DNA of 63,687 bases, the filler included. It is 7 parts of 7 records of this genome, joined end to end, with 100 filler letters (N's around TTAATTAATTAA, not from the genome) between each part and the next. Parts side by side here need not be neighbours in the genome. Positions count along the whole stretch, not along the records: positions 1 to 9,825 come from SRR22947725_1405; 6 more parts are not named here. The stretch is one strand, 5' to 3'. The notes below the pieces were generated by a model. That model made no database searches and had not been told where the DNA came from. It saw only the letters and a list, made by a program, of their open reading frames with translations. A program made the translations under genes and the position numbers. Each line of letters starts with the position of its first letter. The first letter of the stretch is position 1. This document shows positions 1-47,754 of the stretch, piece after piece.

Positions 1-1
1 A

Positions 2-112
2 ACTAGATGTCCAAATCCTTCCCATGAATGCAAAGAAGGTAAAATAGAAATGGGCCTTATTGAAGTTGCTCCAGATCACTGGGTTGATCAATGCTGTGTA
101 AATTGCAACTAA
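2..112 (+). CDS. 3' end of a peptide/nickel ABC transporter ATP-binding subunit (Cys-rich C-terminal extension), partial
   Basis: Manual translation TRCPNPSHECKEGKIEMGLIEVAPDHWVDQCCVNCN* fits the 'RCP...C...L.EV..DH.V.C' tail of DppF/OppF; 4-bp convergent overlap with the next gene. Confidence 0.6.
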   Translation, partial: TRCPNPSHECKEGKIEMGLIEVAPDHWVDQCCVNCN

Positions 113-1206
113 ACTAAACTTAAAATATTTTTTGATATTTGGGCTATTTCTTTTTTAGACATGTATTGATGGCAGGGTAAATTAATTATTTCAGAGCTAA
201 TCATTTCTGTGGTTTTTAAATTAAAATTCTCTCCTAATTTTTTATAGCACACATCTTTGTAATTAATTGGCAAATATCCCAATGCGACTTTAAAATTTTT
301 ATCATATAATTCTGAATAAATTTTATTTCTATTCTTCACTCTTATCGTAAAATTTCTCCATGCGGATTTGGAGTTATCTAAAACTTTTTGAAATTTTATT
401 TTTTTAGAGTCTAATAAGTTCATATACATCAAAGCATTATGATTTCTCTTTTCAATATACATATCTAAATGTTTTAAACGAATATTTAATATTGCTGCAT
501 TAATAGAGGACATTTTAGAATTATATCCAATTAAATCAGATTTCACTGGCCATTTTGAAGGTCTACTTCGTCTGCCATAATCTCTAAGTTTTTTAAGAGT
601 ACCAAATAATTTTTTATTATTTGTAGTTATTATCCCTCCTGGACCAATCCCATCTAGCACTTTTCCTGGATTAGTACTAAAAACACTTAGATCGGATAAA
701 CTGCCAATTTTTTTTTTATTATACTCTGCCCCAGTAGCAAGACATGCATCTTCAATAACTAAAAGATTATTTTTCTTTGCAATAAATTGAATCTTTAACA
801 TTTCAGCAGGATTTCCAAATAAATGTACCGGCAGAATGACTTTAGTTTTTTTATTAATTCTCTTATCAAGTAATTTGGTGTCTATATTAAAAGTATCTTC
901 ACAAACATCTATCCATTTTATTCTAGCACCTGTTAAAGATATTGCATGACTGGTTGGTATGTCCGAGTTAGCGACAGTTATAACTTCGTCGTTAACTTTT
1001 AAATTCAGAGCTCGAAGTGCTAATAAAAGCCCCATAGAACCAGAAGAAACAGTTACAGAATATTTAACTCCACAATACTTGCTAAAATTTTCTTCAAATC
1101 TCTCAACCTCTTCTCCCATTTCCAAAATTCCTTTGTTTAGAATTTTATCGACAGATTTAAGAATTTCTTTTTTGATTGATTGGTAGTGTTTTTTTAGATC
1201 ATACAT
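109..1206 (-). CDS. DegT/DnrJ/EryC1/StrS family PLP aminotransferase
   Basis: V.RFE..F..YCG, PVHLFG, IEDAC, FSTNPGK (PLP Lys), GGIITT, GYNSKM motifs. Confidence 0.9.
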   Translation of the reverse strand: MYDLKKHYQSIKKEILKSVDKILNKGILEMGEEVERFEENFSKYCGVKYSVTVSSGSMGLLLALRALNLKVNDEVITVANSDIPTSHAISLTGARIKWIDVCEDTFNIDTKLLDKRINKKTKVILPVHLFGNPAEMLKIQFIAKKNNLLVIEDACLATGAEYNKKKIGSLSDLSVFSTNPGKVLDGIGPGGIITTNNKKLFGTLKKLRDYGRRSRPSKWPVKSDLIGYNSKMSSINAAILNIRLKHLDMYIEKRNHNALMYMNLLDSKKIKFQKVLDNSKSAWRNFTIRVKNRNKIYSELYDKNFKVALGYLPINYKDVCYKKLGENFNLKTTEMISSEIINLPCHQYMSKKEIAQISKNILSLV

Positions 1207-1210
1207 AAAA

Positions 1211-2455
1211 TCATAATTTTTTAATGATCACTCCATAAAGAACATCAAATACGGTCATAAAATTTTTAATACTCATAAATTCTTTAGGGTTATGACTACC
1301 ATGTTTATTACGAATAAATAACATTAAAGAAGGGATACCAAAATTTGCAAAAACACTAGAATCATGACCAGCACCACTTGGCAAAATCATAGGTTTCATC
1401 TTAATTGATTTTGAATAATTCTCAAAAACTCCAACTAATTTTTTACTCATTATTGCAGGTTCTGAACTTGTTTCTTTTCCTAAAGAAAATTTTGTTTTTG
1501 TTTTTAACTCAATTCTCTTTACTTTACGTAATAAATAATTTTTTGTACTTTTAAGAACTGCTTTCGAATTACTTCTTACATCAATACAAAAACTTACGTG
1601 TCCAGCACTTTTAGCAAAAGAATGTTCTTCTAAATCTGTAAAGAATTGACCAAAAGTTATAGTTAAATCTTTTCCTTTTTTTAATTGATGTTCCCAATAA
1701 GCATTCATTTCATTAACTAATGATGACACTGCAACCACTGAGTCTTTTCTATAGTCAATTGGAGTAGCTCCAGAATGTAAGTACTCTCCTTTACAAACAG
1801 CATCTCTAAATCTAAAACTGCCTCTTATGCTAGTAACTATGCCTAAAGGTAGTTTATTTCTTTCTAGCACTGGTCCTTGCTCTATATGAGGTTCAATAAA
1901 ATATTTGAAATTTTTTAAATCAAACTTAACCTTACCTTGACTTACTTTATTGGCATCAAATCCAGACTTGTTGATATGATAAAATAAAGATTTTTTAGAA
2001 TCAGATCTAATAAGAGAATGAAGAAGTTTTTTATCAAACTTACCGACAGCTATTTTACTTCCAATATAACTATAAGGGAACCAGCAGCTTTCTTCACCTC
2101 TAATACCCATTACACCAATCGAAAAATTAGGTATAATATTATTTTCATAGAGAGTTTTAATTAAAATAATACCCATTAGTACTCCAGCTAAACCATCAAA
2201 ATTACCTCCATGTTTTTGACTATCTAGGTGAGATCCAATCACAACTATTTTTTTTGATTTGCCTTTATATAAAGCTAAAAAATTCCCTCCATAATCAATC
2301 TCTATTGAATTAGAAAATTGTTTTAATTCTTTAATTAGAAATTTATGAGTTAAGTTTTCACCTTTACCATAAGTTTCTCTTGTCACACCAGGATTTGCAG
2401 ATGTTAGTGATTTAATTTTATCAAAAAGATATTTTGAGTATTGAGTATTATTCAT
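1211..2455 (-). CDS. M20 family Zn amidohydrolase (allantoate amidohydrolase / N-carbamoyl-amino-acid hydrolase type)
   Basis: GSHLDS..GG.FDG..GV, EES, EPHIEQGP.LE, HSGATP, SGAGHD, SHNP.E; start moved to the ATG at 2455, which overlaps the end of the upstream gene. Confidence 0.88.
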   Translation of the reverse strand: MNNTQYSKYLFDKIKSLTSANPGVTRETYGKGENLTHKFLIKELKQFSNSIEIDYGGNFLALYKGKSKKIVVIGSHLDSQKHGGNFDGLAGVLMGIILIKTLYENNIIPNFSIGVMGIRGEESCWFPYSYIGSKIAVGKFDKKLLHSLIRSDSKKSLFYHINKSGFDANKVSQGKVKFDLKNFKYFIEPHIEQGPVLERNKLPLGIVTSIRGSFRFRDAVCKGEYLHSGATPIDYRKDSVVAVSSLVNEMNAYWEHQLKKGKDLTITFGQFFTDLEEHSFAKSAGHVSFCIDVRSNSKAVLKSTKNYLLRKVKRIELKTKTKFSLGKETSSEPAIMSKKLVGVFENYSKSIKMKPMILPSGAGHDSSVFANFGIPSLMLFIRNKHGSHNPKEFMSIKNFMTVFDVLYGVIIKKL

Positions 2456-3353
2456 CAAAATTTGCATACCAATGATTAGCAATATCCTCTCTTTTGCATA
2501 CCCAAATCTTGTTAAGGCTTTTTATATGCTTGATAATTTTTTCTATAGCAATAATTCTACCAGGCCTTCCGATTAACCTAGGATGAAGGCCTATATTCAA
2601 CATTTTAGGTTGATGTGAACCTTCTTTGTATAAATAATTGATAGAGTCACATACATATTCATAAAATTGTGTTGCACCACTAAACCCCGATGGTAGCTTA
2701 AAATGAACATCGTTCGTATCTAAAGAATAAGGAATTACTAAATGTTTTTTTCCTCCAGTCTCAACCCAATGAGGCAGATCATCATTATATGAGTCACTAT
2801 CATATAAAAAATTCCCATTTTGAATAAGCAATTTTCTAGTATTTTCGCTTGGTGCATACCTACAGTACCAACCTTTAGCTTTTTTATTAGTTAGTTTTAA
2901 AATTAAATCGTAAGCTTTTTTTATTTGTTTTTTTTCAGTAATTTTATTTAATTTATAATGCTCTTCCCATTTATACCCATGACAACATATGTCGTTAGAA
3001 GAATATTTAATGTGTTCACATATTTCCTTATTTTGAAGAAGTGTCAAAGCACATACAAAAAAAGTATGTGGTAGTTTATAATTATCGAGTAATTTAGCTA
3101 TCCTCCAAAAACCTACTCTTGATCCATATTCATAAATTGACTCAATTGCTAAATCTCTTTGATTTTGATTGTGCCTTCCACCAGGAACTTCAGATAGCCC
3201 TGACTCAGATTTTAGATCTCCAAGCAGTGGAGAATATTCCGACCCTTCTTCAACATTTATTATGAAATTTATTGCAAGTTTTGATTTTTTTGGCCAATTT
3301 GGATTAGGTGGTTCTTTGCCATAGCCGGTAAAGTCTCTTTCTAAAATTTTCAT
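2448..3353 (-). CDS. puuE: PuuE-type metal-independent allantoinase (polysaccharide deacetylase fold)
   Basis: RDF.GYG..PP.P.WP, N.EEG.E, ES.YEYGSRVGFWR, HGYKW (Glu-His-Trp triad), YDSDSY.DDLP, PY.LD.ND, GLH.RL.GRPGR. Confidence 0.8.
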   Translation of the reverse strand: MKILERDFTGYGKEPPNPNWPKKSKLAINFIINVEEGSEYSPLLGDLKSESGLSEVPGGRHNQNQRDLAIESIYEYGSRVGFWRIAKLLDNYKLPHTFFVCALTLLQNKEICEHIKYSSNDICCHGYKWEEHYKLNKITEKKQIKKAYDLILKLTNKKAKGWYCRYAPSENTRKLLIQNGNFLYDSDSYNDDLPHWVETGGKKHLVIPYSLDTNDVHFKLPSGFSGATQFYEYVCDSINYLYKEGSHQPKMLNIGLHPRLIGRPGRIIAIEKIIKHIKSLNKIWVCKREDIANHWYANFDE

Positions 3354-3362
3354 TTTTTTTAA

Positions 3363-4346
3363 TTACCATTCGCCTTCAATTATAGCAAAGAAACAACACC
3401 ATTCACCAACTGTTACGTTAGGAAGTGCTCTCAATCCAAATATCATTCCATTTTCTGGAGCTAAAAGTTTACAAAGTTTATTTCCATAGTAATCAATAAT
3501 TGTTGCAATATAATCGTTTTTATTCATCATTGTTAAAAATTTAATTTCAGGGTTTGGAAGGAAAATTCCACTTTTAGGTGCCAGTAAAGCTTGTTGAAAT
3601 CCTTTATACCTTACTGAAGGATAATGAGTCGTACCATTTATCATTTTATAATGAGTCAGAATATTAATACAAGCTTTAAGCAATGTTTTACCAACATTTA
3701 AGAATGCTCCTGGAGCAGTAGAAGATCGTCCACCTAATTCTACAGTTAAAGCAGGTTTACCAAGCTCAGACATTACAGCCATAGGGCTTTTCGAAGTTAC
3801 ATTAGAGTACAAACATACTCTCCAATCCTCCCCCATTGCTCTTGCTAATTCTTGAGTTTTACTATCAGTAGCAGCAAACATTGCTTCTGCTAAATAAGAA
3901 TGGCTACCTCCTGAATGAATAGATATTTCCATATCTGCAAATTTCACCATCCATTCCATATGAATACTAGCAATTCGTTCACTTAAATATCCATTTTCTC
4001 TTCCAGGATAGATTCTATTCATATCATAAGAAAACATGTCAAGAGGATTTCCTCTTTCTGCCGCTTCCATTGCAGGCACATTAATAACTGGAACAAGGAC
4101 AATAGATCCTGATAATTCTTTTGGATCTATAGTTTTTCTTAAAAGTGAGCAGGTTAAAATACCTTCTGGCTCATCACCATGAATCCCTCCATTGATCCAA
4201 AAACATGGACCATCATTTTGACCATTGATAATCGTTACAGGTATAGTAATCTCTCCACCACCTGCTAATTTTTCAACAATAATTTTTCCATCTTTAATTG
4301 TCCCTGGAAGTGCCTTTGCTGTACCTATCTCAATAGAAGTTGTCAT
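3363..4346 (-). CDS. Succinylglutamate desuccinylase/aspartoacylase (M14, AstE/AspA/DoeB-like) deacylase
   Basis: GIHGDE.EG Zn motif, DMNRIYPG, IHSGG, TVELGG, C-terminal AP..G barrel-sandwich. Confidence 0.88.
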   Translation of the reverse strand: MTTSIEIGTAKALPGTIKDGKIIVEKLAGGGEITIPVTIINGQNDGPCFWINGGIHGDEPEGILTCSLLRKTIDPKELSGSIVLVPVINVPAMEAAERGNPLDMFSYDMNRIYPGRENGYLSERIASIHMEWMVKFADMEISIHSGGSHSYLAEAMFAATDSKTQELARAMGEDWRVCLYSNVTSKSPMAVMSELGKPALTVELGGRSSTAPGAFLNVGKTLLKACINILTHYKMINGTTHYPSVRYKGFQQALLAPKSGIFLPNPEIKFLTMMNKNDYIATIIDYYGNKLCKLLAPENGMIFGLRALPNVTVGEWCCFFAIIEGEW

Positions 4347-4347
4347 A

Positions 4348-4848
4348 TTATACCCCTGAAATTTTGTGTTTTTCTAATTCCTCTGCTGTATATACCTGCA
4401 TAAATTCAATTTCAGTTCCAGATACTTCATCGTCTAAGAAAGCAACAAATCCCTCAGGATGTGGGTGACTTCCATACACTTTGCAAGCTTCACATATCCT
4501 TAGCTTAGCATTATGTTTTTTTGCATGATCTAAAACTTTATTTATATCGTCCACTTCATAACAAATATGATGCAGACCCTCACCATATTTTTCAATCCAT
4601 TCTGTAAATCTCCCAACTTTATTCAACGATTCACAAAGTTGAAATTCAATATCATTTATAAAAAAAATTGCGACTTTAGTTTCTGCCTTTTCCCAAATGA
4701 CTTTTTCAGTTTTAGAAGATACAGATAAAAAAGATTGAAAATTTAATAGAGCTTTATCTACACTTTTGACTGCAAAAGCCATATGCTTGATTCGCATTGA
4801 TTTATCTTGATTTAGGCGTGCTCTTTGACGATAATCCATATATTTCAT
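4348..4848 (-). CDS. VOC/glyoxalase family protein, methylmalonyl-CoA-epimerase-like
   Basis: IKHMAFAV, GEGLHHICYEVDDI, IEFMQ metal-ligand pattern; the start could be the later Met (MRIKH). Confidence 0.8.
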   Translation of the reverse strand: MKYMDYRQRARLNQDKSMRIKHMAFAVKSVDKALLNFQSFLSVSSKTEKVIWEKAETKVAIFFINDIEFQLCESLNKVGRFTEWIEKYGEGLHHICYEVDDINKVLDHAKKHNAKLRICEACKVYGSHPHPEGFVAFLDDEVSGTEIEFMQVYTAEELEKHKISGV

Positions 4849-4896
4849 AATTTACCAGAGAAAATATAATGCCAAAAGATTAATAATATCAATTAT

Positions 4897-4917
4897 GTGA
4901 TGACATATTATCATCAC
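4897..4917. promoter_or_regulatory. Putative LysR operator GTGATGA-N7-TCATCAC
   Basis: Perfect 7-bp inverted repeat containing T-N11-A (T4901..A4913) in the 86-bp divergent intergenic region just upstream of the LysR start. Confidence 0.7.
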
Positions 4918-4934
4918 TTATCTATAGTCAAATT

Positions 4935-5846
4935 ATGCTTTCAATTGAATATAGATATTTTTACCAATCAGCTTTAGATAGCTCTATAAGAAAAGCTTCT
5001 CAAAATTTAAATATTAATTCCTCAGCTATAGTAAGACAAATTCAAAAACTCGAGGATAGATTACAAACAAAACTTTTTATAAGAAATGCAAGAGGTTTAG
5101 AGTTAACTGAAGAAGGAAAATTATTATTTGATCATCTGAGTATACAAAATGAAACAAATCAAAATTTTCTAACAAATTTAAAAGAAAATAAAACTAGCAC
5201 TACAGGAGAGATTAATATCTCAACAGGTGAAACATTTGCTGTTCAATTTTTATCACCAATAATTTCTAAATTTAGAAAAGTGTATCCAGATGTAAAAATT
5301 AAAATATCATCTAGACAGCCAGAAACTATCATTGATAACCTAATAACAAATAAAACAGATTTTGGAATTTCTTTTGCTAAAAATTTACCGAGTACACTAA
5401 AAACTATTTATGTATGCAATTTTCCTATGGGCATGCTTTGCTCGCCTGCACATATATTAGCTAATAAAACTGAAATTTCATTGGAGGATTGTTTGAGATT
5501 TCCACTAATATTTCATCCAGGGACTGTAACATTTTGGAATTCAATACAAAGAGAAGTTGGGGAAAAATTATTTTCAATAAATCCCAATTTGATATCCAAT
5601 TCATTTGCATTTATTAAAAATTATCTAATTGAAGACATTAATTATTTAACTTTTTTTACAAGCGTAGGTTCTGTCAGAGAGATTCAGAGTAAGAGTTTAA
5701 TCTTTAAAAAAATTAATCACAAATTATTTCTAAATAATAAAGTTGGGATTATAGTTTCAAAGAAAAATAGATTAAAAAAGTATACTGAAGAATTTATTGA
5801 TTTAATTAAAAAAGAGTTTCAAAATTCAGAAGCTGCTGATTGTTAA
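4935..5846 (+). CDS. LysR family transcriptional regulator
   Basis: N-terminal HTH SIRKASQNLNINSSAIVRQIQKLE..L...LF.R..RG..LTEEG; 303 aa; divergent from the operon. Confidence 0.95.
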   Translation: MLSIEYRYFYQSALDSSIRKASQNLNINSSAIVRQIQKLEDRLQTKLFIRNARGLELTEEGKLLFDHLSIQNETNQNFLTNLKENKTSTTGEINISTGETFAVQFLSPIISKFRKVYPDVKIKISSRQPETIIDNLITNKTDFGISFAKNLPSTLKTIYVCNFPMGMLCSPAHILANKTEISLEDCLRFPLIFHPGTVTFWNSIQREVGEKLFSINPNLISNSFAFIKNYLIEDINYLTFFTSVGSVREIQSKSLIFKKINHKLFLNNKVGIIVSKKNRLKKYTEEFIDLIKKEFQNSEAADC

Positions 5847-5852
5847 AAAAAA

Positions 5853-7553
5853 TTAAATTAATGATTCAATTTTAGGCATTAAATTAATTAATTGCTTGGT
5901 ATATTGATGATCAGGCTCGTTAAACAATTTTTCAGTTTCATTTGTTTCACAAATAGCACCGTTTTTAAGAACGATAATTCTATTACACATCTGTCTGATA
6001 ACAGGTAAGTCATGACTAATAAATAACATTGTAAGATGAAGTTCATCTTGAATATCTTTTAATAGATTTAATATTTGCGCCTGAATACTTACATCTAAAG
6101 CTGATGTAGGTTCATCACAGATTAATAATCTTGGCCGTGTAGCAAGAGCTCTTGCAATAGAAATTCTTTGTCTCTGTCCTCCAGAAAATTCATGGGGATA
6201 TCGGTCTAGAGATTTTCTTGTCATTCCAACAATATCAATTAAATCATGAACATTTTGCTCCAAGTCATTTCTAGTGATACTTTTTTGAAAAAATTTAATA
6301 GGTTCAGCAATAATATCTTTTACTTTGAATCTTGGATTTAATGATGAGTATGGATCTTGAAAAATCATTTGTATTTGACCTCTACTCTTATCAATTTGAT
6401 ATTTTCTTTTAAAATTATAGAGTGATAAACCATTATATTCTAGCTCTCCAAATGATGGTCTTACAAGACCCGTAATAATTTTAGCAATTGTTGATTTACC
6501 AGAACCTGACTCTCCAACTAAACCAAGTGTTTCTCCTTCGAATAACTGAAAGGAAACATTGTTTACTGCCTTAACTGCCTTATCACCTATTTTTTTTCCA
6601 TAAGTGATAGACTGATCGTCAAAAATTTTTGTTATTTTTTTTAACTCTAATAATTTTTGATTAGTATTTTGTCTTACACCCCAAGTTTTAATAATATTTT
6701 TCGTTAAATTAGCTGAACTTGATGTAATTTCTGACCCATCAGGACCGATAAGTTTGAATCTTTCAATTTTTTTATTTGTTGGTGGAACTGAAATAACTAG
6801 GCTACGTGCCTCTGTAGATTTTGGCTGAGTTAGTAAATCCTTTGTATTGCCTTGCTCTACAATTAATCCATGACGCATAACAATAACTTTATTTGTAGTT
6901 TCTGCAATAACGCCCATGTCATGAGTAATAATAATAACTCCTAAGTTTCTTTTTTTTGTAAGTTCTTTTAATAATTCTAAAATTTGATATTGGATACTAA
7001 CATCTAATGCAGTTGTGGGCTCATCTGCTATTATTAGATCTGGCTCACAACTTATTGCTAAAGCAATAACAACCCGTTGACGCATACCTCCACTAAATTG
7101 GTGAGGATAATCTTCAATTCTTTTAGTAGCATTTTCTATCCCAACTTCTTCTAGAAGATTAATAGATTTTTTAAGAGCTTCATCGTAGGATAAATTTAAA
7201 TGTGTTTGTATTGTTTCTATTAATTGATCTTTTATTTTAAAAAGTGGATTTAATGAGGTTTGTGGATCTTGAAAAACAAAACCTATTTTTTTTCCTCTTA
7301 TTTTTTGGATAATTTCTTCATTATTTTGCAATTCTTGATTGTCTATTTTTATTGTGCCATCAGTAATTTGACCAGGTGGATCTATTAAATTAATAATGGC
7401 ATTAGCTATAGTTGATTTACCTGATCCAGACTCACCAACAATTCCAAGTATTTCACCTCTCTCTAATGTAAAATTAACATTACTACTCGCAACTATAGTT
7501 TCTTTTCTAGTTTTATAACTAATGTTTAAATTTTTAATTTCTAATAAACTCAT
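5853..7553 (-). CDS. Dipeptide/oligopeptide ABC transporter, fused double ATPase
   Basis: Two Walker A motifs (GESGSGKST), YPHQFSGGMRQR and YPHEFSGGQRQR, DEPT; start MSLLEI at 7553 (ATGA overlap with the permease stop). Confidence 0.95.
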   Translation of the reverse strand: MSLLEIKNLNISYKTRKETIVASSNVNFTLERGEILGIVGESGSGKSTIANAIINLIDPPGQITDGTIKIDNQELQNNEEIIQKIRGKKIGFVFQDPQTSLNPLFKIKDQLIETIQTHLNLSYDEALKKSINLLEEVGIENATKRIEDYPHQFSGGMRQRVVIALAISCEPDLIIADEPTTALDVSIQYQILELLKELTKKRNLGVIIITHDMGVIAETTNKVIVMRHGLIVEQGNTKDLLTQPKSTEARSLVISVPPTNKKIERFKLIGPDGSEITSSSANLTKNIIKTWGVRQNTNQKLLELKKITKIFDDQSITYGKKIGDKAVKAVNNVSFQLFEGETLGLVGESGSGKSTIAKIITGLVRPSFGELEYNGLSLYNFKRKYQIDKSRGQIQMIFQDPYSSLNPRFKVKDIIAEPIKFFQKSITRNDLEQNVHDLIDIVGMTRKSLDRYPHEFSGGQRQRISIARALATRPRLLICDEPTSALDVSIQAQILNLLKDIQDELHLTMLFISHDLPVIRQMCNRIIVLKNGAICETNETEKLFNEPDHQYTKQLINLMPKIESLI

Positions 7554-8473
7554 CTCTTTTTTAATTTTGGATTTAAAGCATCTCTCATCCAATCTCCTAA
7601 AAGATTTATAGATAAAGCTAGGACTACAAGAAATATTGCAGGAAAAAATGTTATCCACCACTCACCAGAAAATAAAAAATTATTTCCAAATCTAATAAGT
7701 GTTCCTAAAGAAGGAGTCGTTGGTGGCACCCCAACTCCTAAAAAACTCAATGTAGACTCTGTTATGATAGCTAAAGCTAAACCTATTGTTGCAATTACTA
7801 GAATAGGTCTAAGAATATTTGGTAATATATGCTTAAACATTATAATAATGTTTGATAAACCAATAATCCTTGAAGCTGAAACATACTCTTTGTTTTTTTC
7901 AACAAGAGTTGATGCTCTGGTAACTCTAGCAAACTGAGGCCATTCAGAAATACCAATAGCAAAGATTAGAACATAAATTGCCATCTCGTCATGCATTGAT
8001 CGGGAAATTACTGCTCTAGCTATTCCATCTACTAATAAAGCCATCAAAATAGTTGGTATAGTTAATTGTATGTCAGTAACGCGCATCACTATTATTTCAT
8101 ATCTACCACCTATATAACCAGCCGTTACACCTAGAAAGACCCCTAATATCATTGCAAAAAAAATTGATGCAAAACCAACAATTAAAGAAATTCTTGAACC
8201 ATAAATCATAGTAGAAAACATATCCCGTCCTTGTTGATCAGTACCTAGAAAAAAACTTGCACTTCCTCCTTCGGACCAAACAGGCGGTGTAAAAGCATCC
8301 ATTAAAGAAACGCTCGCCGGATCAAATGGATTGTAGGGTGCTACTATTCCTGCAAAAAAAGAGCAAAGAAAAATGATAAAGAAAATACTCGAAGAAATAA
8401 TTGCTATTTTTGAATTAAAAAAACTAAAGCCAATATCGGTATCATATATTTTATTAAAAGTTTTTTTAATCAT
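7550..8473 (-). CDS. Peptide ABC transporter permease (DppC/OppC)
   Basis: LGTD.QGRD....IYG.RISL, HILPN, LSFLG.G, NLLGD.MRD.L.P. Confidence 0.95.
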   Translation of the reverse strand: MIKKTFNKIYDTDIGFSFFNSKIAIISSSIFFIIFLCSFFAGIVAPYNPFDPASVSLMDAFTPPVWSEGGSASFFLGTDQQGRDMFSTMIYGSRISLIVGFASIFFAMILGVFLGVTAGYIGGRYEIIVMRVTDIQLTIPTILMALLVDGIARAVISRSMHDEMAIYVLIFAIGISEWPQFARVTRASTLVEKNKEYVSASRIIGLSNIIIMFKHILPNILRPILVIATIGLALAIITESTLSFLGVGVPPTTPSLGTLIRFGNNFLFSGEWWITFFPAIFLVVLALSINLLGDWMRDALNPKLKKR

Positions 8474-8475
8474 TA

Positions 8476-9453
8476 TTATTCACTCTCTTCTTTCAACCTA
8501 ATTCTTGGATCAATAAAATAATAAGTAATATCAACTATAAAGTTTATCATTACAAAAATAAAAGCAACCATAATCATATATGCGGACATTATAGGTATAT
8601 CGACAAAATATACGGCGTTAATAAATAAGGAGCCCATACCAGGCCATTGAAAAACAGTTTCAGTAATAATTGAAAATGCAATTAAGGTACCAATATTTAT
8701 ACCTGTAATTGTGATAACTGGTATTAAACCATTTTTGAGTGCGTGTTTATAGTTGATAACATTATTTTTTATTCCTCTTGCTCTAGCAAATTTTATATAA
8801 TCAGTTTGTAATATTTCCATCATTTCCGCTCTTACTAGTCTGATTACATAAGTCATTTGAAAAAGGCTTAGTGTCACAGATGGAAGTATTAGAGCTTTTA
8901 AACCAGATAAAGTCAAAAAACCTGTTGTCCAAAAACCTAAATCAGTTACTTCTCCTCTTCCAAAGGATGGAAGAACACCTAAAATTACAGAAAACAAATA
9001 AATTAACATAATTCCAATGATAAATGTTGGAAGTGAAACTCCAGCTAAAGACACAACAAGAATAACATTTGAAATAAAGCTATCTCTATTAATTCCTGTA
9101 TAAACTCCTAAAATTGTTCCTATTATTATTGCTAACATTGCAGAAACAAAAACTAATTCAAGAGTAGCTGGTAATCTTTCTCCAATTAAATCTGAAACTT
9201 CTCTTTTTAATTGATAAGATATTCCAAAATTCCCTTGAATTATATTTCCAATAAATCTTGAAAATTGAATGTAAACGGGATCATTCAATCCCAATACTTC
9301 TCTCACTTCAGCTCTTCTCTCATCTGAAGCATCTTCTCCAGTCATGCTGTTAACAGGATCTCCAACAAAATTGAATAAAGAAAATGAAACAAAAGCAACA
9401 ACAAACATAACAAGAATAGATTGAAGTAGTCTTTTAAAGAAATAGCTGATCAT
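8476..9453 (-). CDS. Peptide ABC transporter permease (DppB/OppB)
   Basis: GDP, LGL.DP...Q, RLPATLEL, DYI.FARARG, HALKN, E.VF.WPG.G, DPRIR. Confidence 0.95.
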   Translation of the reverse strand: MISYFFKRLLQSILVMFVVAFVSFSLFNFVGDPVNSMTGEDASDERRAEVREVLGLNDPVYIQFSRFIGNIIQGNFGISYQLKREVSDLIGERLPATLELVFVSAMLAIIIGTILGVYTGINRDSFISNVILVVSLAGVSLPTFIIGIMLIYLFSVILGVLPSFGRGEVTDLGFWTTGFLTLSGLKALILPSVTLSLFQMTYVIRLVRAEMMEILQTDYIKFARARGIKNNVINYKHALKNGLIPVITITGINIGTLIAFSIITETVFQWPGMGSLFINAVYFVDIPIMSAYMIMVAFIFVMINFIVDITYYFIDPRIRLKEESE

Positions 9454-9462
9454 TATATGAAA

Positions 9463-9491
9463 TTCTGGTCAGGATATTTCACTGACCAGAA
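9463..9491 (-). promoter_or_regulatory. Intercistronic stem-loop after the substrate-binding protein gene (mRNA stabiliser or attenuator)
   Basis: TTCTGGTCAG-N9-CTGACCAGAA, a perfect 10-bp stem between the SBP and permease genes. Confidence 0.6.
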
Positions 9492-9506
9492 ATTTTAAGT
9501 TAATTT

Positions 9507-9825
9507 TTAGTTTACGTTTGCAAATCTAAATAATGGTTCGTTGTTCATTCTAATAGGAACATCGACATTACTTTTAGATGCTTGGTTAACAACTTGGTGG
9601 TGTAAAGGCAAGTATGTTACGTCGTCTTGAGTGATATCCCAAGCTTCTGCAATCATAGCATTCCTTTTATCCAAGTCTGTTTCAACACCCATTGCTGCAA
9701 CTAACTCGTCAACTCTAGCGTTAGAGAAATTTACCTTATTCCAACTACCAGCGCTGTCAAATAGATATGAATATACATAATGACTGTCAAAAGTTGGAAC
9801 ACCCCAACCTAACATGTACATATCA
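9507..9825 (-). CDS. Peptide ABC transporter substrate-binding protein, C-terminal fragment (contig end)
   Basis: YMLGWG.PT.D, WN...FSN.RVD.L, YLPLHHQ typical of SBP family 5. Confidence 0.85.
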
Positions 9826-9925
9826 NNNNNNNNNNNNNNNNNNNNNNNNNNNNNNNNNNNNNNNNNNNNTTAATTAATTAANNNNNNNNNNNNNNNNNNN
9901 NNNNNNNNNNNNNNNNNNNNNNNNN
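9826..9925. other. Artificial contig spacer (N44-TTAATTAATTAA-N44)
   Basis: N runs flanking a six-frame stop linker; composition changes across it. Confidence 0.99.
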
Positions 9926-9926
9926 A

Positions 9927-9971
9927 GTTTCAGTTGGACCATCAAGAGATCAAACAATTTATAGGGATTAG
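9927..9971 (+). CDS. purA: Probable 3' end of adenylosuccinate synthetase (partial)
   Basis: Manual translation VSVGPSRDQTIYRD* resembles the PurA C-terminal 'VS.GP.R.QTI' motif; only 14 aa visible. Confidence 0.55.
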   Translation, partial: VSVGPSRDQTIYRD

Positions 9972-9992
9972 TTTTATCAATTCGGGAGAGAT

Positions 9993-12224
9993 ATGAGAAA
10001 CCTTCTAACTTCACTCGTTCTGCTTTTTATTTTCACTGTAGCTATTTTTTTTGGAGGCGCAGTCCTTAAGGTTTTTGGAACATTGGATGGCCCTGGTGTC
10101 ATAGAGGGAAAAGCTTTACCAGGCAAAGCACTTGAAGATAGAGTCAACAGAGTCAATGCCGTTAAATCTGAATTAGAAGTTTCGGATGAAAAGCAAATTC
10201 TGTTTGGCGATCTCCATGTTCATACAACTTACTCAACAGATGCATTTATGTGGTCTTTGCCTTTTATGAATGGCAAGGGAGCATCACCATTGGCAGATGC
10301 GTGCGATTATGCAAGATTTTGCTCAGCTTTAGATTTCTGGTCTATTAATGACCATGCTGAAGCCAGCACCCCTAGAAAATGGTTGGATACCAAGCAAAGC
10401 ATTCAGCAATGTAATAATTTATCAGAAGGGACAGATGACTTGGTAAGCTTTTTAGGCTGGGAATGGACCCAAGTTGATCCTACTCCCGATAATCATTATG
10501 GGCATAAAAATGTTATTTTTTTAGAAACTGATGAGGCTTTGGTTCCCCCAAGAGCTATTGGTTCTGGAGGGGTTGCTCCTTTGGTTATGAGATTGGGTTT
10601 ACCATGGACCATGTCTGCCTTGCCGGCAACCTTAGATTTAAAAAATAGAGATAGGTTTTTTGCATTTGATAAATTCTTTGAAGAAATCAAGGCCACGCCT
10701 ATATGTCCTGAAGGGGTTAATACGAGAGATCTGCCTGTCAATTGTTATGAAGAGGCCAGCAATCCAAACCTATTGTTTCAGAAACTAAAAGATTGGGAAA
10801 CGCCTTACATGGTCATTCCTCATGGGACAACTTGGGGATTTTATACACCCCCAACATCAGATTGGAAAAAGCAGCTTACAGATTTTCAAGATGATGAGTC
10901 TCAATTTTTGTTTGAAATTTATTCAGGTCATGGCAATTCTGAAGAATACAGAATATGGAATGATTCAAATATTAATTCACAAGCGGAGATATTTTGCCCT
11001 GAACAAACCGAAGATTTTTTACCAACCTGTCAACAGGCAGGCAATATTATGGCTCAAAGATGCGAAGACTCTGGGATGGATGAACAGACTTGTAAGTATC
11101 TTGTAAACCAAACAAAATTATTTTCTGCACAAATGGGCTCAACAGGATATGCGGCTGTTAATGAAACTGATCCAGATGATTTTTTAAATGCAGGACAATG
11201 CAATGACTGTTTTTTACCATCTTTTAACTACAGACCGCTAGGTTCAGCGCAGTATGTTTTAGCTTTAAGTGATTTTACCGACAAAGAAAATCCGAAACGC
11301 TTTAAGTTTGGGTTCATTGGTTCAAGTGATAATCACGGCGCTCGACCAGGGACCGGTTATAAAGAAATTGATCGACTTTATAATACTGAAGCAAACGGCT
11401 TTAATGATCCCTTGTTTGAAAAGTTGAGTTCTCTTAGACGCCCCAAGGGGAAATTAGAACCTTCCTATGTAAATCTAGGCAATACATCTTTAACCAGTAT
11501 CTTAGATTTAAATATTGCAACAGACGCTGAAAGGCAAAGTGCTTATTTCATGTCAGGTGGCTTGGTTGCTGCCCACTCATCATCTAGAAACAGGCAATCA
11601 ATTTGGAATGCCTTGGAAAGAAAAGAGGTTTATGCAACTTCAGGCCCAAGAATTCTTTTATGGTTTGATGCAGAAGTTCAATCTCAATCTTTAGCAATGG
11701 GAGCTGAAGTTAATAGCAGCCAATCGCCAGTATTCACTGTAAAAGCCGCAGGTTCTCTTAAGCAAAAACCTGGGTGCCCTGATTATAGTAATAATGGATT
11801 GAGTAAAGAGCGTTTAGAAAAGATATGTAACTCTGAATGTTATAACCCAAGCAATGAAAGAAGAGTTATTACTAGAATTGAGGTGATTAAAATTTTACCT
11901 CAACAATATGAAAATGAACCTGTTGAAGGTTTAGTGGAAGATGTTTGGAAGACATTCCCGTGTAATAGCACTAGTTGCCAGATCTCATTTGAAGATGAGC
12001 AATTCTCAATTGGACGAAGAGATGCTGTTTATTATGTTCGAGCCATTGAGGAGCCTTCGCCAACTTTATCGGCAGATCCACTAGGGTGTGAATTTAACGA
12101 AAATGGTGAATGTATCAAAACTGAAATATGCAGGGTAGGGGTTAATGAAAATAGAGATGGGTGTGTTGCACCCGCTGAGCATCGAGCTTGGTCTAGCCCA
12201 ATATATGTTAATTACTCTTCTTGA
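9993..12224 (+). CDS. DUF3604 family PHP-like metallo-hydrolase with N-terminal membrane anchor
   Basis: FGDLHVHT..S.DA, NDHAE, GWEWT, HKNVIF, IPHG, GFIGSSDNH, EVYATSGPRI, YYVRAIE, RAWSSPI; GGGAG RBS. Confidence 0.85.
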   Translation: MRNLLTSLVLLFIFTVAIFFGGAVLKVFGTLDGPGVIEGKALPGKALEDRVNRVNAVKSELEVSDEKQILFGDLHVHTTYSTDAFMWSLPFMNGKGASPLADACDYARFCSALDFWSINDHAEASTPRKWLDTKQSIQQCNNLSEGTDDLVSFLGWEWTQVDPTPDNHYGHKNVIFLETDEALVPPRAIGSGGVAPLVMRLGLPWTMSALPATLDLKNRDRFFAFDKFFEEIKATPICPEGVNTRDLPVNCYEEASNPNLLFQKLKDWETPYMVIPHGTTWGFYTPPTSDWKKQLTDFQDDESQFLFEIYSGHGNSEEYRIWNDSNINSQAEIFCPEQTEDFLPTCQQAGNIMAQRCEDSGMDEQTCKYLVNQTKLFSAQMGSTGYAAVNETDPDDFLNAGQCNDCFLPSFNYRPLGSAQYVLALSDFTDKENPKRFKFGFIGSSDNHGARPGTGYKEIDRLYNTEANGFNDPLFEKLSSLRRPKGKLEPSYVNLGNTSLTSILDLNIATDAERQSAYFMSGGLVAAHSSSRNRQSIWNALERKEVYATSGPRILLWFDAEVQSQSLAMGAEVNSSQSPVFTVKAAGSLKQKPGCPDYSNNGLSKERLEKICNSECYNPSNERRVITRIEVIKILPQQYENEPVEGLVEDVWKTFPCNSTSCQISFEDEQFSIGRRDAVYYVRAIEEPSPTLSADPLGCEFNENGECIKTEICRVGVNENRDGCVAPAEHRAWSSPIYVNYSS

Positions 12225-46581: not shown

Positions 46582-47754
46582 CTATTTAACTCTTAAACTC
46601 AAAGAAGGGCTACTTGGCAAATTTATAGTTCTGTTAAAAACGTCCAATGAGTTGTTTATCTTATCGGATGGACAATTTTTAAACACCTTAAGTGTATGTA
46701 ATGGTCTCCAAGTATATCTAACGCCATATCCTTTTTTATTTAATAAATTAGAAAATTTATCTCTAGTTTTCTTACTAGAAAAAATAGCAATTATTAACCA
46801 ATAATTAATTTTTGATCCGACAGGTTCTTTAATTAATTTAATTCCTTTAAAGTCTTTGAATAAATCATAATAAGATTGAAAATTTTTTCTTTTAGCAATT
46901 AAAATTTTTTTTAAATTTTCGATTTGAGCACATCCAACTGCTGCTGATAAATTATTCATTCTATAATTGAATCCAACATAATCATGAAAGTGATCGTATC
47001 TTTTTTTTAATTTAGCATGAGTTGATAAATGCTTTAATTTTTTTGCTACATTTCTATTATTTGTAATAATTGAACCACCTGCTCCAGTAGTCAAAGTTTT
47101 ATTTCCATTAAAGCTCAAAATACCTATATCACCGAATGTTCCAAGGTGTTTACCTTTATAATAAGAGCCTACAGCTTCTGCGGCATCTTCAATTAAAATT
47201 ATATTAAATTTTTTACAAATTTTTTTAATTTCATAAATTTTACATGGTAAACCATAAACATGAACTACTATTAATGCTTTTATTCTTTTTTTTGAAAATT
47301 TATTAAAAGATTTATTGCCTCTTTTTTTTACTATTTTTTTTAAATAAATTTCCAACCTTTTTGGACAAACGCCAAAATTAGTTTTTTCTATATCAACAAA
47401 ATTAGGCGTTGCATTACAATATTTTACAGCATTAGCTGTAGCAACATAAGTAAAGCTAGGAAGCAAAACCTCATCATTTTCATTAATTTCATAATTATGC
47501 AAAGCCAAATGTAGTGCGGCAGTACCAGATGATGTTGCTATAGAATACTTGCTTTTTGTTATTTTACAAATTTTGTGTTCAAAGTTATCGACAAATTTTC
47601 CGACTGATGATACAAATCCAGTGTTTATACAATTAAGTAAATATTTTTTTTCATTTCCAAAGAAAATAGGATCGTGCAGTCTTTTACTTTTGTTTAAAAA
47701 AAATTGCTTCAATTTAAATGAAATTTTATCTAAATTTTTTTTATCAATAGTCAT
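46582..47754 (-). CDS. legC: LegC-family sugar aminotransferase
   Basis: LH.P.F.GNEK.YL..CI.T.FVSSVG.FV, EDAAE, SFNGNK..TTG.GG, HL.T.AK, NYRM.N. Confidence 0.8.
   Translation of the reverse strand: MTIDKKNLDKISFKLKQFFLNKSKRLHDPIFFGNEKKYLLNCINTGFVSSVGKFVDNFEHKICKITKSKYSIATSSGTAALHLALHNYEINENDEVLLPSFTYVATANAVKYCNATPNFVDIEKTNFGVCPKRLEIYLKKIVKKRGNKSFNKFSKKRIKALIVVHVYGLPCKIYEIKKICKKFNIILIEDAAEAVGSYYKGKHLGTFGDIGILSFNGNKTLTTGAGGSIITNNRNVAKKLKHLSTHAKLKKRYDHFHDYVGFNYRMNNLSAAVGCAQIENLKKILIAKRKNFQSYYDLFKDFKGIKLIKEPVGSKINYWLIIAIFSSKKTRDKFSNLLNKKGYGVRYTWRPLHTLKVFKNCPSDKINNSLDVFNRTINLPSSPSLSLRVK

Follow-up and report, generated by a model that had tools for sequence, protein, structure and literature searches.

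A LysR-associated VOC-AstE-PuuE-M20-DegT operon of marine SAR11 bacteria and its relation to a larger gene cluster found across phyla

Here we describe a group of five genes, associated with a LysR-type regulator gene, in record SRR22947725_1405, which encode in order a VOC protein, an AstE-like deacylase, a PuuE-like amidase, an M20 amidase, and a DegT aminotransferase. The record supplies positions 1-9,825 of the window, by which we mean the whole stretch of DNA analysed (63,687 nucleotides (nt), in which seven parts are joined by 100 N's). Among the homologues found, the nearest named protein belongs to a 'Pelagibacteraceae bacterium' (89% identity). G+C content is approximately 29-31% over the first 9.8 kb of the window, and the host is a marine Pelagibacterales (SAR11) bacterium. 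Genomic context was drawn from related genomes (G001 and others) and from metagenome contigs.

Gene content and enzyme families of the operon

Open reading frame (ORF) calls and family scans place the five genes head to tail on the minus strand between positions 109 and 4848. The first gene encodes the VOC protein (4348-4848; PF13669) and is followed by genes for an AstE/AspA-type zinc deacylase resembling DoeB (3363-4346; PF24827), a PuuE-like amidase of the polysaccharide-deacetylase fold (2448-3353; PF01522), an M20 amidase of the hydantoinase/carbamoylase family (1211-2482; TIGR01879), and, last, a pyridoxal-phosphate (PLP) aminotransferase of the DegT/DnrJ/EryC1 family (109-1206; PF01041). 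The tight packing reported in the initial annotation was borne out: gaps measure 1 nt (VOC/AstE), 9 nt (AstE/PuuE), and 4 nt (M20/DegT), and the PuuE and M20 genes share 35 nt when the longest ORF is taken; with an M20 start at the in-frame ATG at 2467 or 2455, one of which is probably the true one, they share 20 or 8 nt. Because the same gene order is found again in related genomes and in metagenome contigs, we take it, on comparative grounds, to be more than a chance arrangement.

No equivalog cut-off of NCBIfam was reached by any of the five enzymes, and only the broad hydantoinase/carbamoylase model TIGR01879 was passed, by the M20 protein (238.9 bits against a cut-off of 204). This protein falls below every allantoate-amidohydrolase and ErtE cut-off (TIGR03176, NF006768-NF006775), its best score being 314.5 against 399 (NF006771), and it scores 181 with the AllC model, for which the cut-off is 597.75. 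Its relatives in the PDB are AllC, L-carbamoylase, and beta-alanine synthase, with matches to the allantoate amidohydrolase 1z2l (126 bits), the L-carbamoylase 3n5f (123 bits), and 1r3n (114 bits). The PuuE-like protein scores 343.5 bits with the PuuE allantoinase model TIGR03212, below the cut-off of 424.6, and approximately 298 bits with PDB entries 1z7a and 3cl6. The catalytic domain of the AstE-like protein is recognised by PF24827 (86.4 bits against a cut-off of 25), while the DoeB model TIGR02994 covers residues 31-243 only and yields 93.4 bits against a cut-off of 402.7; matches to 3cdx and 6twl reach approximately 83 bits. The VOC protein can be assigned as a member of the VOC fold only, with 61.9 bits for methylmalonyl-CoA epimerase (TIGR03081, cut-off 114.95) and 34 bits for PDB entry 3rmu.

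The DegT protein carries a full-length PF01041 domain (292 bits, residues 10-360) and scores below cut-off with all of the nucleoside diphosphate (NDP)-sugar equivalogs (PseC, LegC, RfbH, ArnB, WecE, DesI), the best NCBIfam scores being 236.7 against 423.5 for PseC and 191 against 420 for LegC. Its best PDB match is 7b0d, a 'Glutamine--scyllo-inositol transaminase' (270 bits), on which the open literature yielded nothing relevant; the class V fold PF00266 gave no match at E<=0.001. Family scans and locus maps found no dehydratase, isomerase, or glycosyltransferase genes in the SAR11 locus. The protein belongs to a clade of its own, with identities of at least 56% within SAR11 and at most 46% outside, and it is only 29% identical to the product of the other DegT-family gene of the window (46582-47754). 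The enzymes look active, because the AstE-like alignment A2, with 10 sequences drawn from several phyla, has the motif IHGDEPEG (HxxE) without variation, and residue K182 does not vary in the DegT alignment A1; we take the former to be the zinc motif and the latter to be the PLP lysine.

Regulator, transcription, and linkage of the DegT gene in SAR11 genomes

The LysR-type transcriptional regulator gene (4935-5846, plus strand; PF00126 and PF03466) adjoins the operon in the mapped SAR11 loci, and in the window it is divergent from the VOC gene, as had been annotated initially, across a spacer of 86 nt. LysR sites follow a consensus of a dyad containing T-N11-A, and the spacer holds a perfect 7-bp inverted repeat, GTGATGA-N7-TCATCAC (4897-4917), which is conserved across six aligned SAR11 spacers (alignment A3). 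The dyad pattern occurs in 8 of 171 loci, seven of these being SAR11 LysR/VOC spacers, and the repeat is a good candidate for the LysR operator. It was not found upstream of DegT in loci where that gene is separated from the other four; the SDR/DegT spacer of the separated arrangement (L002, 9900-9945) contains a different near-palindrome, TTGTATA...TGTATACA, which may be the site of another regulator. Since promoter-like sites were not enriched (26 found against 33.9 expected), those at 4892-4863 (minus strand) and 4900-4928 (plus strand) are only suggestions. The only terminator-like site on the minus strand lies within AstE, with none between genes, and an Rfam scan of positions 1-12000 (E<=0.1) detected no RNA family and no riboswitch.

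Between 31 and 50% of sampled words of the stretch are contained in six metatranscriptome runs, and for four of the runs we mapped RNA-library contigs onto the window. These contigs cover positions 44-4806 in the four runs and bridge the gene junctions: PuuE/M20 and AstE/VOC in all four, PuuE/AstE in three (with at least 31 nt on either side), and M20/DegT in two (X14, 1061-1369; X15, 1103-1354). The LysR gene is almost devoid of RNA-contig cover while the operon is covered, which is a hint against DNA carry-over and not evidence. Because contigs of this kind cannot prove one transcript, and carry-over of DNA is possible, we rate co-transcription of the five genes as likely and no higher. Near-identical DNA is found in seawater and estuary metagenomes of 10 studies, the top match possibly being the window's own source sample. 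We regard the operon as real, conserved, and expressed.

Two further observations were made on the RNA data. In all four runs some contigs depart from the window sequence, before it at 3103 and behind it at 3137 or 3143, and continue into unrelated, AT-rich sequence; a co-occurring strain may differ in the PuuE-like region 3103-3143 or carry a rearrangement there. The RNA runs X14-X19 are labelled 'freshwater metagenome', and the DNA matches come from seawater or estuary samples.

Linkage of the DegT gene was surveyed in 116 species genomes of the family of G001. An orthologue of DegT (at least 67% identity) is present in 16 of these, the AstE-like gene in 17, and the M20 gene in 18. Conservation of DegT with the other four genes, on which the initial annotation had made its proposal depend, is found throughout: M20 and DegT share a contig in 12 genomes and lie within 8.3 kb of one another in all 12. 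DegT directly follows M20 in seven (G010, G062, G057, G007, G069, G022, G064; 7-27 nt between matched segments), the two genes are approximately 8.3 kb apart in five (G001, G055, G053, G068, G063), and adjacency was also seen in three metagenome contigs (L109, L119, L127). M20 and DegT lie on separate contigs in G109, G002, and G054. The apparent exceptions all stand at contig ends, namely G025, G094, and G096, without DegT, and G108, with DegT only and without the operon. We considered G094 as an instance of the operon without DegT and set it aside as unproven, its contig stopping approximately 500 nt past M20; the same holds for G025 and G096.

Three arrangements were distinguished. In type A (the window, L127, G010, and G057, and, with an extra EamA gene, G069, G022, and G064), a first set of ATP-binding cassette (ABC) transporter genes, ABC1, is followed by LysR, by VOC-AstE-PuuE-M20-DegT, and then by a convergent operon encoding DppF, DppD, a cyclic amidohydrolase, a protein of 476 amino acids (aa), a class I aminotransferase, an Xaa-Pro-dipeptidase-like amidohydrolase, and an M24 protein. 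In type B, M20 and DegT are separated by an 8.3-kb block on the opposite strand, which carries genes for a second Dpp/Opp transporter and its binding protein, for an amidohydrolase, and for two short-chain dehydrogenases/reductases (SDR), with GFO/IDH/MocA and EamA genes after DegT. In type C (contigs L098 and L102), DegT is divergent from SDR-SDR-amidohydrolase and is followed by LysR and by an operon in which importer and enzyme genes are interleaved (substrate-binding protein-permease-permease-VOC-AstE-DppD-DppF-PuuE-M20). In four type A genomes, no orthologue of the type B amidohydrolase was found at E<=1e-40 (0 of 4), and matches to the type B SDR were of 32-37% identity only, with no orthologue. 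DegT is the sole gene of the type B neighbourhood that is always retained.

The gene for the 474-476-aa protein of the convergent operon (L127:9390-10820, minus strand; G001:C2:292713-294134) lies between the hydantoinase/allantoinase-like cyclic amidohydrolase gene and the class I aminotransferase gene. Its product matches no Pfam or NCBIfam family, is 85-100% identical among the 18 of 116 genomes that carry it, and is more conserved than its neighbours.

A larger cluster across phyla, and the flanks of the operon

Homologues of the AstE-like protein with 57-60% identity occur in distant bacteria, under source names that include Microvirga, Mesorhizobium, Meiothermus, and Paracoccus suum. A metagenome scan gave 80 loci: 12 of the low-GC (0.28-0.32) SAR11 type and 68 of high GC (0.46-0.70). 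From these, 36 loci with VOC and PuuE-like matches and an AstE identity of at most 62% were chosen; their neighbours were clustered, and one representative of each cluster was scanned. In 31 of the 36, the chain of genes that leads up to VOC includes one for a class I aminotransferase; a gene resembling ureidoglycolate lyase (UGL) follows the PuuE-like gene in 28, and one resembling dihydrodipicolinate synthase (DHDPS) is present in 17. Other members include genes for an M32 carboxypeptidase (17 loci), a GntR regulator (12), an NAD-epimerase-like protein (21), and a GFO/IDH/MocA protein (GFO; 19). The genes keep a conserved order, namely small ORF, M32, class I aminotransferase, VOC, AstE-like, PuuE-like, UGL-like, DHDPS-like, GntR, epimerase-like, and GFO; in L146 the cluster is preceded, divergently, by an M24/creatinase-like gene, Ldh_2, and two DUF4438 genes. 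The UGL-like protein scores 74 bits against cut-offs of 160-280, the DHDPS-like protein matches NanA weakly (71 bits), the epimerase-like protein matches LegB weakly (43.5 bits), and no equivalog emerged when the genes of the foreign cluster and the 476-aa protein were scanned with NCBIfam.

The VOC-AstE-PuuE-like core is 52-60% identical between SAR11 and the cluster of other phyla. In the SAR11 genomes that carry the island containing the operon (G001, G010), the rest of the foreign cluster lies 15-25 kb from the operon in the same order and comprises M24, Ldh_2, two DUF4438 genes, M32, a class I aminotransferase, a second VOC, epimerase-like, GFO, SDR, and a dimeric M20 gene. Identities between SAR11 and foreign proteins are 57-62% for the class I aminotransferase, 54% for the second VOC, 60% for GFO, and 65% for the dimeric M20. 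The AstE, PuuE-like, UGL-like, and DHDPS-like genes are missing between the second VOC and the epimerase-like gene of SAR11. Five SAR11 island genomes yielded no orthologue of the cluster's UGL-like gene, the best match (32%) standing beside a canonical PuuE, and their islands yielded no orthologue of the cluster's DHDPS-like gene. M20 and DegT matches were restricted to the low-GC, SAR11-type loci, with none in the 68 high-GC loci (E<=1e-15, coverage at least 50%).

This comparison shows the SAR11 operon to be a version of the three-gene core (VOC, AstE-like, PuuE-like) of a large catabolic cluster of approximately 25 genes, a core which in SAR11 is split off under LysR with a duplicated VOC, and with M20 and DegT in the position of the UGL-like and DHDPS-like genes. 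The second VOC (L172, corresponding to G001:C2:295000-314000, 8369-8851; L173, 8656-9138) is 49% identical to that of the operon, and both are 54-59% identical to the single non-SAR11 VOC, a pattern that suggests duplication of the gene within the SAR11 lineage. Replacement of the foreign class I aminotransferase by DegT was considered and rejected, SAR11 having kept a true orthologue (59-62%) as well as a second class I paralogue (45%).

In a subset of non-SAR11 loci (L085, L087, L103, L104, L108, L115, L160, L161), VOC and AstE-like genes are 2-3.4 kb apart with no PuuE-like gene detected; these L085-type loci are a further variant of the core. A tblastn search of a plasmid collection with the AstE-like protein (E<=1e-40) gave no match, and among 401 alphaproteobacterial genomes, a class-level sample, G001 itself was the only one with a match at E<=1e-80, which marks the gene as rare in that class. 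The claim that no pathway with this gene set has been described agrees with the openly accessible literature, in which we found no description of the gene set or of the DUF4438 cluster, and nothing linking SAR11 with allantoate amidohydrolase.

Peptide-family ABC transporter genes had been annotated on both flanks of the operon, and both flanks are confirmed, the left one through metagenome contig L127 and the right one at 5853-9453. Contig L127 is 99.5% identical over window positions 1-6161, runs on for 6.6 kb, and has the whole gene of a 339-aa ATPase, which identifies the 111 nt left of DegT (2-112, plus strand) as the terminal 3' part of a DppF-type ABC ATPase gene (PF00005 and oligo_HPY) convergent with DegT. 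This gene is the last one of the convergent operon and overlaps the DegT stop by 4 nt. To the right, all on the minus strand, lie genes for a fused DppD/DppF-type ABC ATPase (5853-7661; two ABC_tran domains and oligo_HPY), the C subunit (7550-8473; PF00528 and OppC_N) and the B subunit (8476-9453; PF00528 and BPD_transp_1_N) of a Dpp/Opp-type permease, and a remnant consisting of the last 104 codons of a family-5 substrate-binding protein gene (9507-9821), recognised by homology to relatives. The homologue of this binding protein in G001 has 536 aa, and G010, the closest genome, has an intact copy of the gene (95% identity). Past position 9825, which falls within the binding-protein gene, homology to relatives is lost and the G+C content rises from approximately 0.30 to approximately 0.39; a DUF3604 gene of 743 aa lies past this breakpoint at 9993-12224. 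The breakpoint is either a real loss, replacement, or insertion in this strain or a mis-joined contig. Between 10000 and 62000 the window is a mosaic in G+C content, with values of 0.36-0.39 (10-16 kb), 0.39-0.40 (22-28 kb), 0.22-0.25 (a large part of 32-50 kb), and 0.49-0.54 (58-62 kb), a pattern that resembles a flexible island region beside a high-GC element.

Predicted function, alternatives, and significance

The view of the initial annotation that the genes make up a LysR-associated catabolic unit, of ureide-type and deacylase-type hydrolases with a sugar-type aminotransferase, is supported. The reading that we favour, and to which we give about an even chance, is that the LysR-associated, co-transcribed operon serves a catabolic route that strips nitrogen from an imported ring-amide/ureido and/or N-acyl compound other than allantoin. 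The imported compound, which we infer to be related to allantoin or hydantoins, would be taken up by a Dpp/Opp-type ABC importer and isomerised or racemised by the VOC protein. The PuuE paralogue would open the cyclic amide, and the AstE-like and M20 proteins would hydrolyse N-acyl or N-carbamoyl bonds, releasing NH3 and CO2 (or an acid) and leaving a free primary amine. The DegT protein would pass this last amine to a 2-oxo acid, with the nitrogen ending in glutamate. An alternative of this kind, in which an N-acyl or ureido compound is scavenged for nitrogen, had been put forward in the initial annotation; it fits better than allantoin and remains unproven.

Several known systems share part of this logic. 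Hyu systems consist of a hydantoin racemase, a hydantoinase, and an L-N-carbamoylase of the M20 type. The operon resembles them in the sequence of racemisation, ring opening, and decarbamoylation, and in an M20 enzyme of the same TIGR01879 family with a match to 3n5f, but its opener has the PuuE fold and not that of a cyclic amidohydrolase, its putative racemase is a VOC protein and not of the Asp/Glu-racemase type, and it includes an AstE-like deacylase and an aminotransferase besides. In the ectoine route of DoeA/DoeB/DoeD (EutD/EutE/Atf; DoeB structure 6twl), too, the amine freed by an AstE-family deacylase is collected by an aminotransferase, and M24 creatinase-like hydrolases are present in the wider SAR11 island; however, the DoeB model is missed by a wide score difference (93 against 402.7), there is no DoeA in the operon, and PuuE-like, M20, and VOC proteins are foreign to the ectoine route. 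The sugar and cyclitol enzymes of the DegT family (PseC, LegC, QdtB (3frk), WbpE, and 7b0d) share the full PF01041 domain, the invariant lysine, and, for 7b0d, the 270-bit match, but the operon DegT is found in a catabolic hydrolase operon without sugar-nucleotide genes.

A number of observations weigh against the favoured reading. No enzyme of the operon passes an equivalog model, so that the chemical steps all derive from family membership, and the RNA-library contigs are, as said above, no proof of a single transcript. DegT lies outside the operon in the five type B genomes and in the type C contigs L098 and L102, and its divergence from SDR-SDR-amidohydrolase there means that it must have its own promoter. 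The whole island of approximately 40 kb is inherited jointly (the 474-aa gene of the convergent operon, for example, is found in 18 of 116 genomes, nearly the same ones), for which reason presence or absence cannot decide whether DegT goes with the operon or with its neighbours. Outside SAR11, the most similar DegT with readable surroundings (L003, 43% identity) is part of an NDP-sugar biosynthesis cluster that also encodes FdtA, a 4,6-dehydratase, and a glycosyltransferase, and we know of no DegT enzyme that acts on simple amino acids. Finally, the adjacent importer has no intact binding-protein gene in this genome, which makes uptake through it doubtful.

Several of these points also bear on the possibility that DegT is unrelated to the four hydrolases and belongs to an amino-sugar or aminocyclitol module with SDR and GFO/IDH/MocA, having been juxtaposed to them, in some lineages, by loss or non-insertion of the 8.3-kb block. 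Divergence from SDR-SDR-amidohydrolase in types B and C, the sugar-pathway setting of the nearest outside relative (L003), and the best PDB match, to the scyllo-inositol transaminase 7b0d, are all in keeping with such a module, as are the convergent orientation of DegT and GFO/IDH/MocA in type B (112 bits with an inositol 2-dehydrogenase model and 104 with UDP-GlcNAc 3-dehydrogenase), the lack of any DegT within 10 kb of the core in the 68 high-GC loci, and the fact that all types retain GFO, SDR, and epimerase-like genes at other places in the island. We nevertheless consider it unlikely, given that DegT is kept in four genomes of the adjacent type in which no SDR or amidohydrolase orthologues were found, that the distance from M20 (4 nt here, 7-27 nt between matched segments in relatives) leaves no room for a promoter, that RNA-library contigs bridge M20/DegT in two of four runs, and that the identities of DegT and M20 fall together across lineages (92/94, 72/78, 68/73, 67/74, and 64/66%). 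The initial annotation had regarded it as adverse if DegT proved to be an ordinary NDP-sugar enzyme transcribed separately. Transcription is separate in types B and C; no sugar equivalog is reached, and no sugar-nucleotide genes are neighbours.

A second complete allantoin or ureide pathway, in which the PuuE-like protein would be an allantoinase, the M20 enzyme would be an allantoate (or ureidoglycolate) amidohydrolase, and DegT would act as a non-orthologous ureidoglycine/glyoxylate aminotransferase in place of PucG/HpxJ and yield oxalurate or glycine, we regard as quite improbable. The bacterial ureide pathway runs from the PuuE allantoinase through the allantoate amidohydrolase AllC (M20) or allantoicase to ureidoglycolate lyase, and includes, as one option, the ureidoglycine aminotransferase PucG/HpxJ. 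The operon and its relatives resemble that pathway in drawing on the same superfamilies in the same order, with a PuuE-type opener followed by M20 (operon) or UGL-like (other phyla) and an aminotransferase attached. In favour of ureide chemistry, the PuuE-like protein is the closest paralogue of true PuuE (1z7a, 3cl6), the best PDB match of M20 is the allantoate amidohydrolase 1z2l, the UGL-like gene occupies the M20 position in other phyla, and an aminotransferase accompanies the core in both versions. Against it, every ureide equivalog is missed (TIGR03212 and AllC as well as, in the foreign cluster, the UGL models), the operon VOC and AstE-like proteins have no counterpart or role in the known route, and the aminotransferase is of the DegT type and not class V.

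The related genomes bear on the same question. Orthologues of the operon PuuE-like protein in five of them score 345-358 bits, again below the TIGR03212 cut-off, and a second, canonical PuuE (438-448 bits) is encoded on another contig in three (G010, G057, G022), within approximately 2.5 kb of the only ureidoglycolate-lyase-like match of each genome, a weak one of 26-32% identity. The two remaining genomes, G001 and G053, showed the paralogue only, which would suit a ureide role; both are incomplete. The low score together with the canonical PuuE elsewhere makes an ordinary allantoin route unlikely, and the purine/allantoin alternative of the initial annotation is not supported. The operon enzymes are thus paralogues of ureide enzymes with, presumably, another substrate. 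A canonical PuuE beside a ureidoglycolate-lyase-like match fits the published route of purine breakdown in SAR11, made up of PuuE, allantoicase, and ureidoglycolate lyase (PMC11698098); PMC4016543, considered as a related pathway, was rejected, since it deals with a ureidoglycine carbamoyltransferase.

The cluster, this operon included, might instead degrade a di-N-acylated amino sugar, a nonulosonic acid related to pseudaminic or legionaminic acid, or a glycopeptide, for example a muropeptide. Two or three deacylases would then deal with the N-acyl groups and aminotransferases with the amino groups, and the carbon skeleton would fall to a NanA-like lyase and dehydrogenases. Such a route would accommodate the PseC and LegC matches of DegT, the NanA and LegB matches of the DHDPS-like and epimerase-like proteins, the conserved GFO and SDR genes, and the carbohydrate-esterase-type deacetylase fold of the PuuE-like protein (PF01522). 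It is nonetheless very improbable, as these matches are all far under their cut-offs, allantoinase is a much nearer relative of the PuuE-like protein than the sugar deacetylases are, both M20, by its carbamoylase family, and the UGL-like protein favour ureido over acetamido groups, and the peptidases (M32, M24, dimeric M20, Xaa-Pro-dipeptidase-like) would be left unexplained.

Returning to the nitrogen-stripping route, a regulator-controlled nitrogen-scavenging operon of importer and hydrolases is of a familiar kind, and it is the link to the larger cluster that is new. A lyase of the UGL type would convert the ureido carbon into a carbonyl and urea, and M20 together with an aminotransferase would arrive at the same carbonyl with NH3, CO2, and glutamate as products. 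With M20 and DegT in place of the UGL-like and DHDPS-like proteins, the predicted yield in SAR11 is ammonia and glutamate and not urea, which would plausibly be an advantage for a nitrogen-limited cell whose genome is streamlined. More tentatively, and with doubts of our own, we suggest that SAR11 may have remodelled an ancient pathway for an abundant nitrogen-rich marine metabolite, with M20 and DegT replacing the urea-releasing lyase step, all nitrogen being recovered as ammonia or glutamate without urease, and DegT acting on a free, non-nucleotide amine.

SAR11 bacteria are among the most abundant bacteria of the ocean, where they live on dilute organic nitrogen, and the operon is carried by approximately one sixth of the species-level genomes of the family examined. 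With five enzymes, one regulator, and one importer, it offers the most tractable entry to the substrate of a multi-phylum cluster of approximately 25 genes. If true, the replacement by M20 and DegT would mean that a streamlined genome has rewired a pathway to save nitrogen, and it would widen the known roles of DegT aminotransferases.

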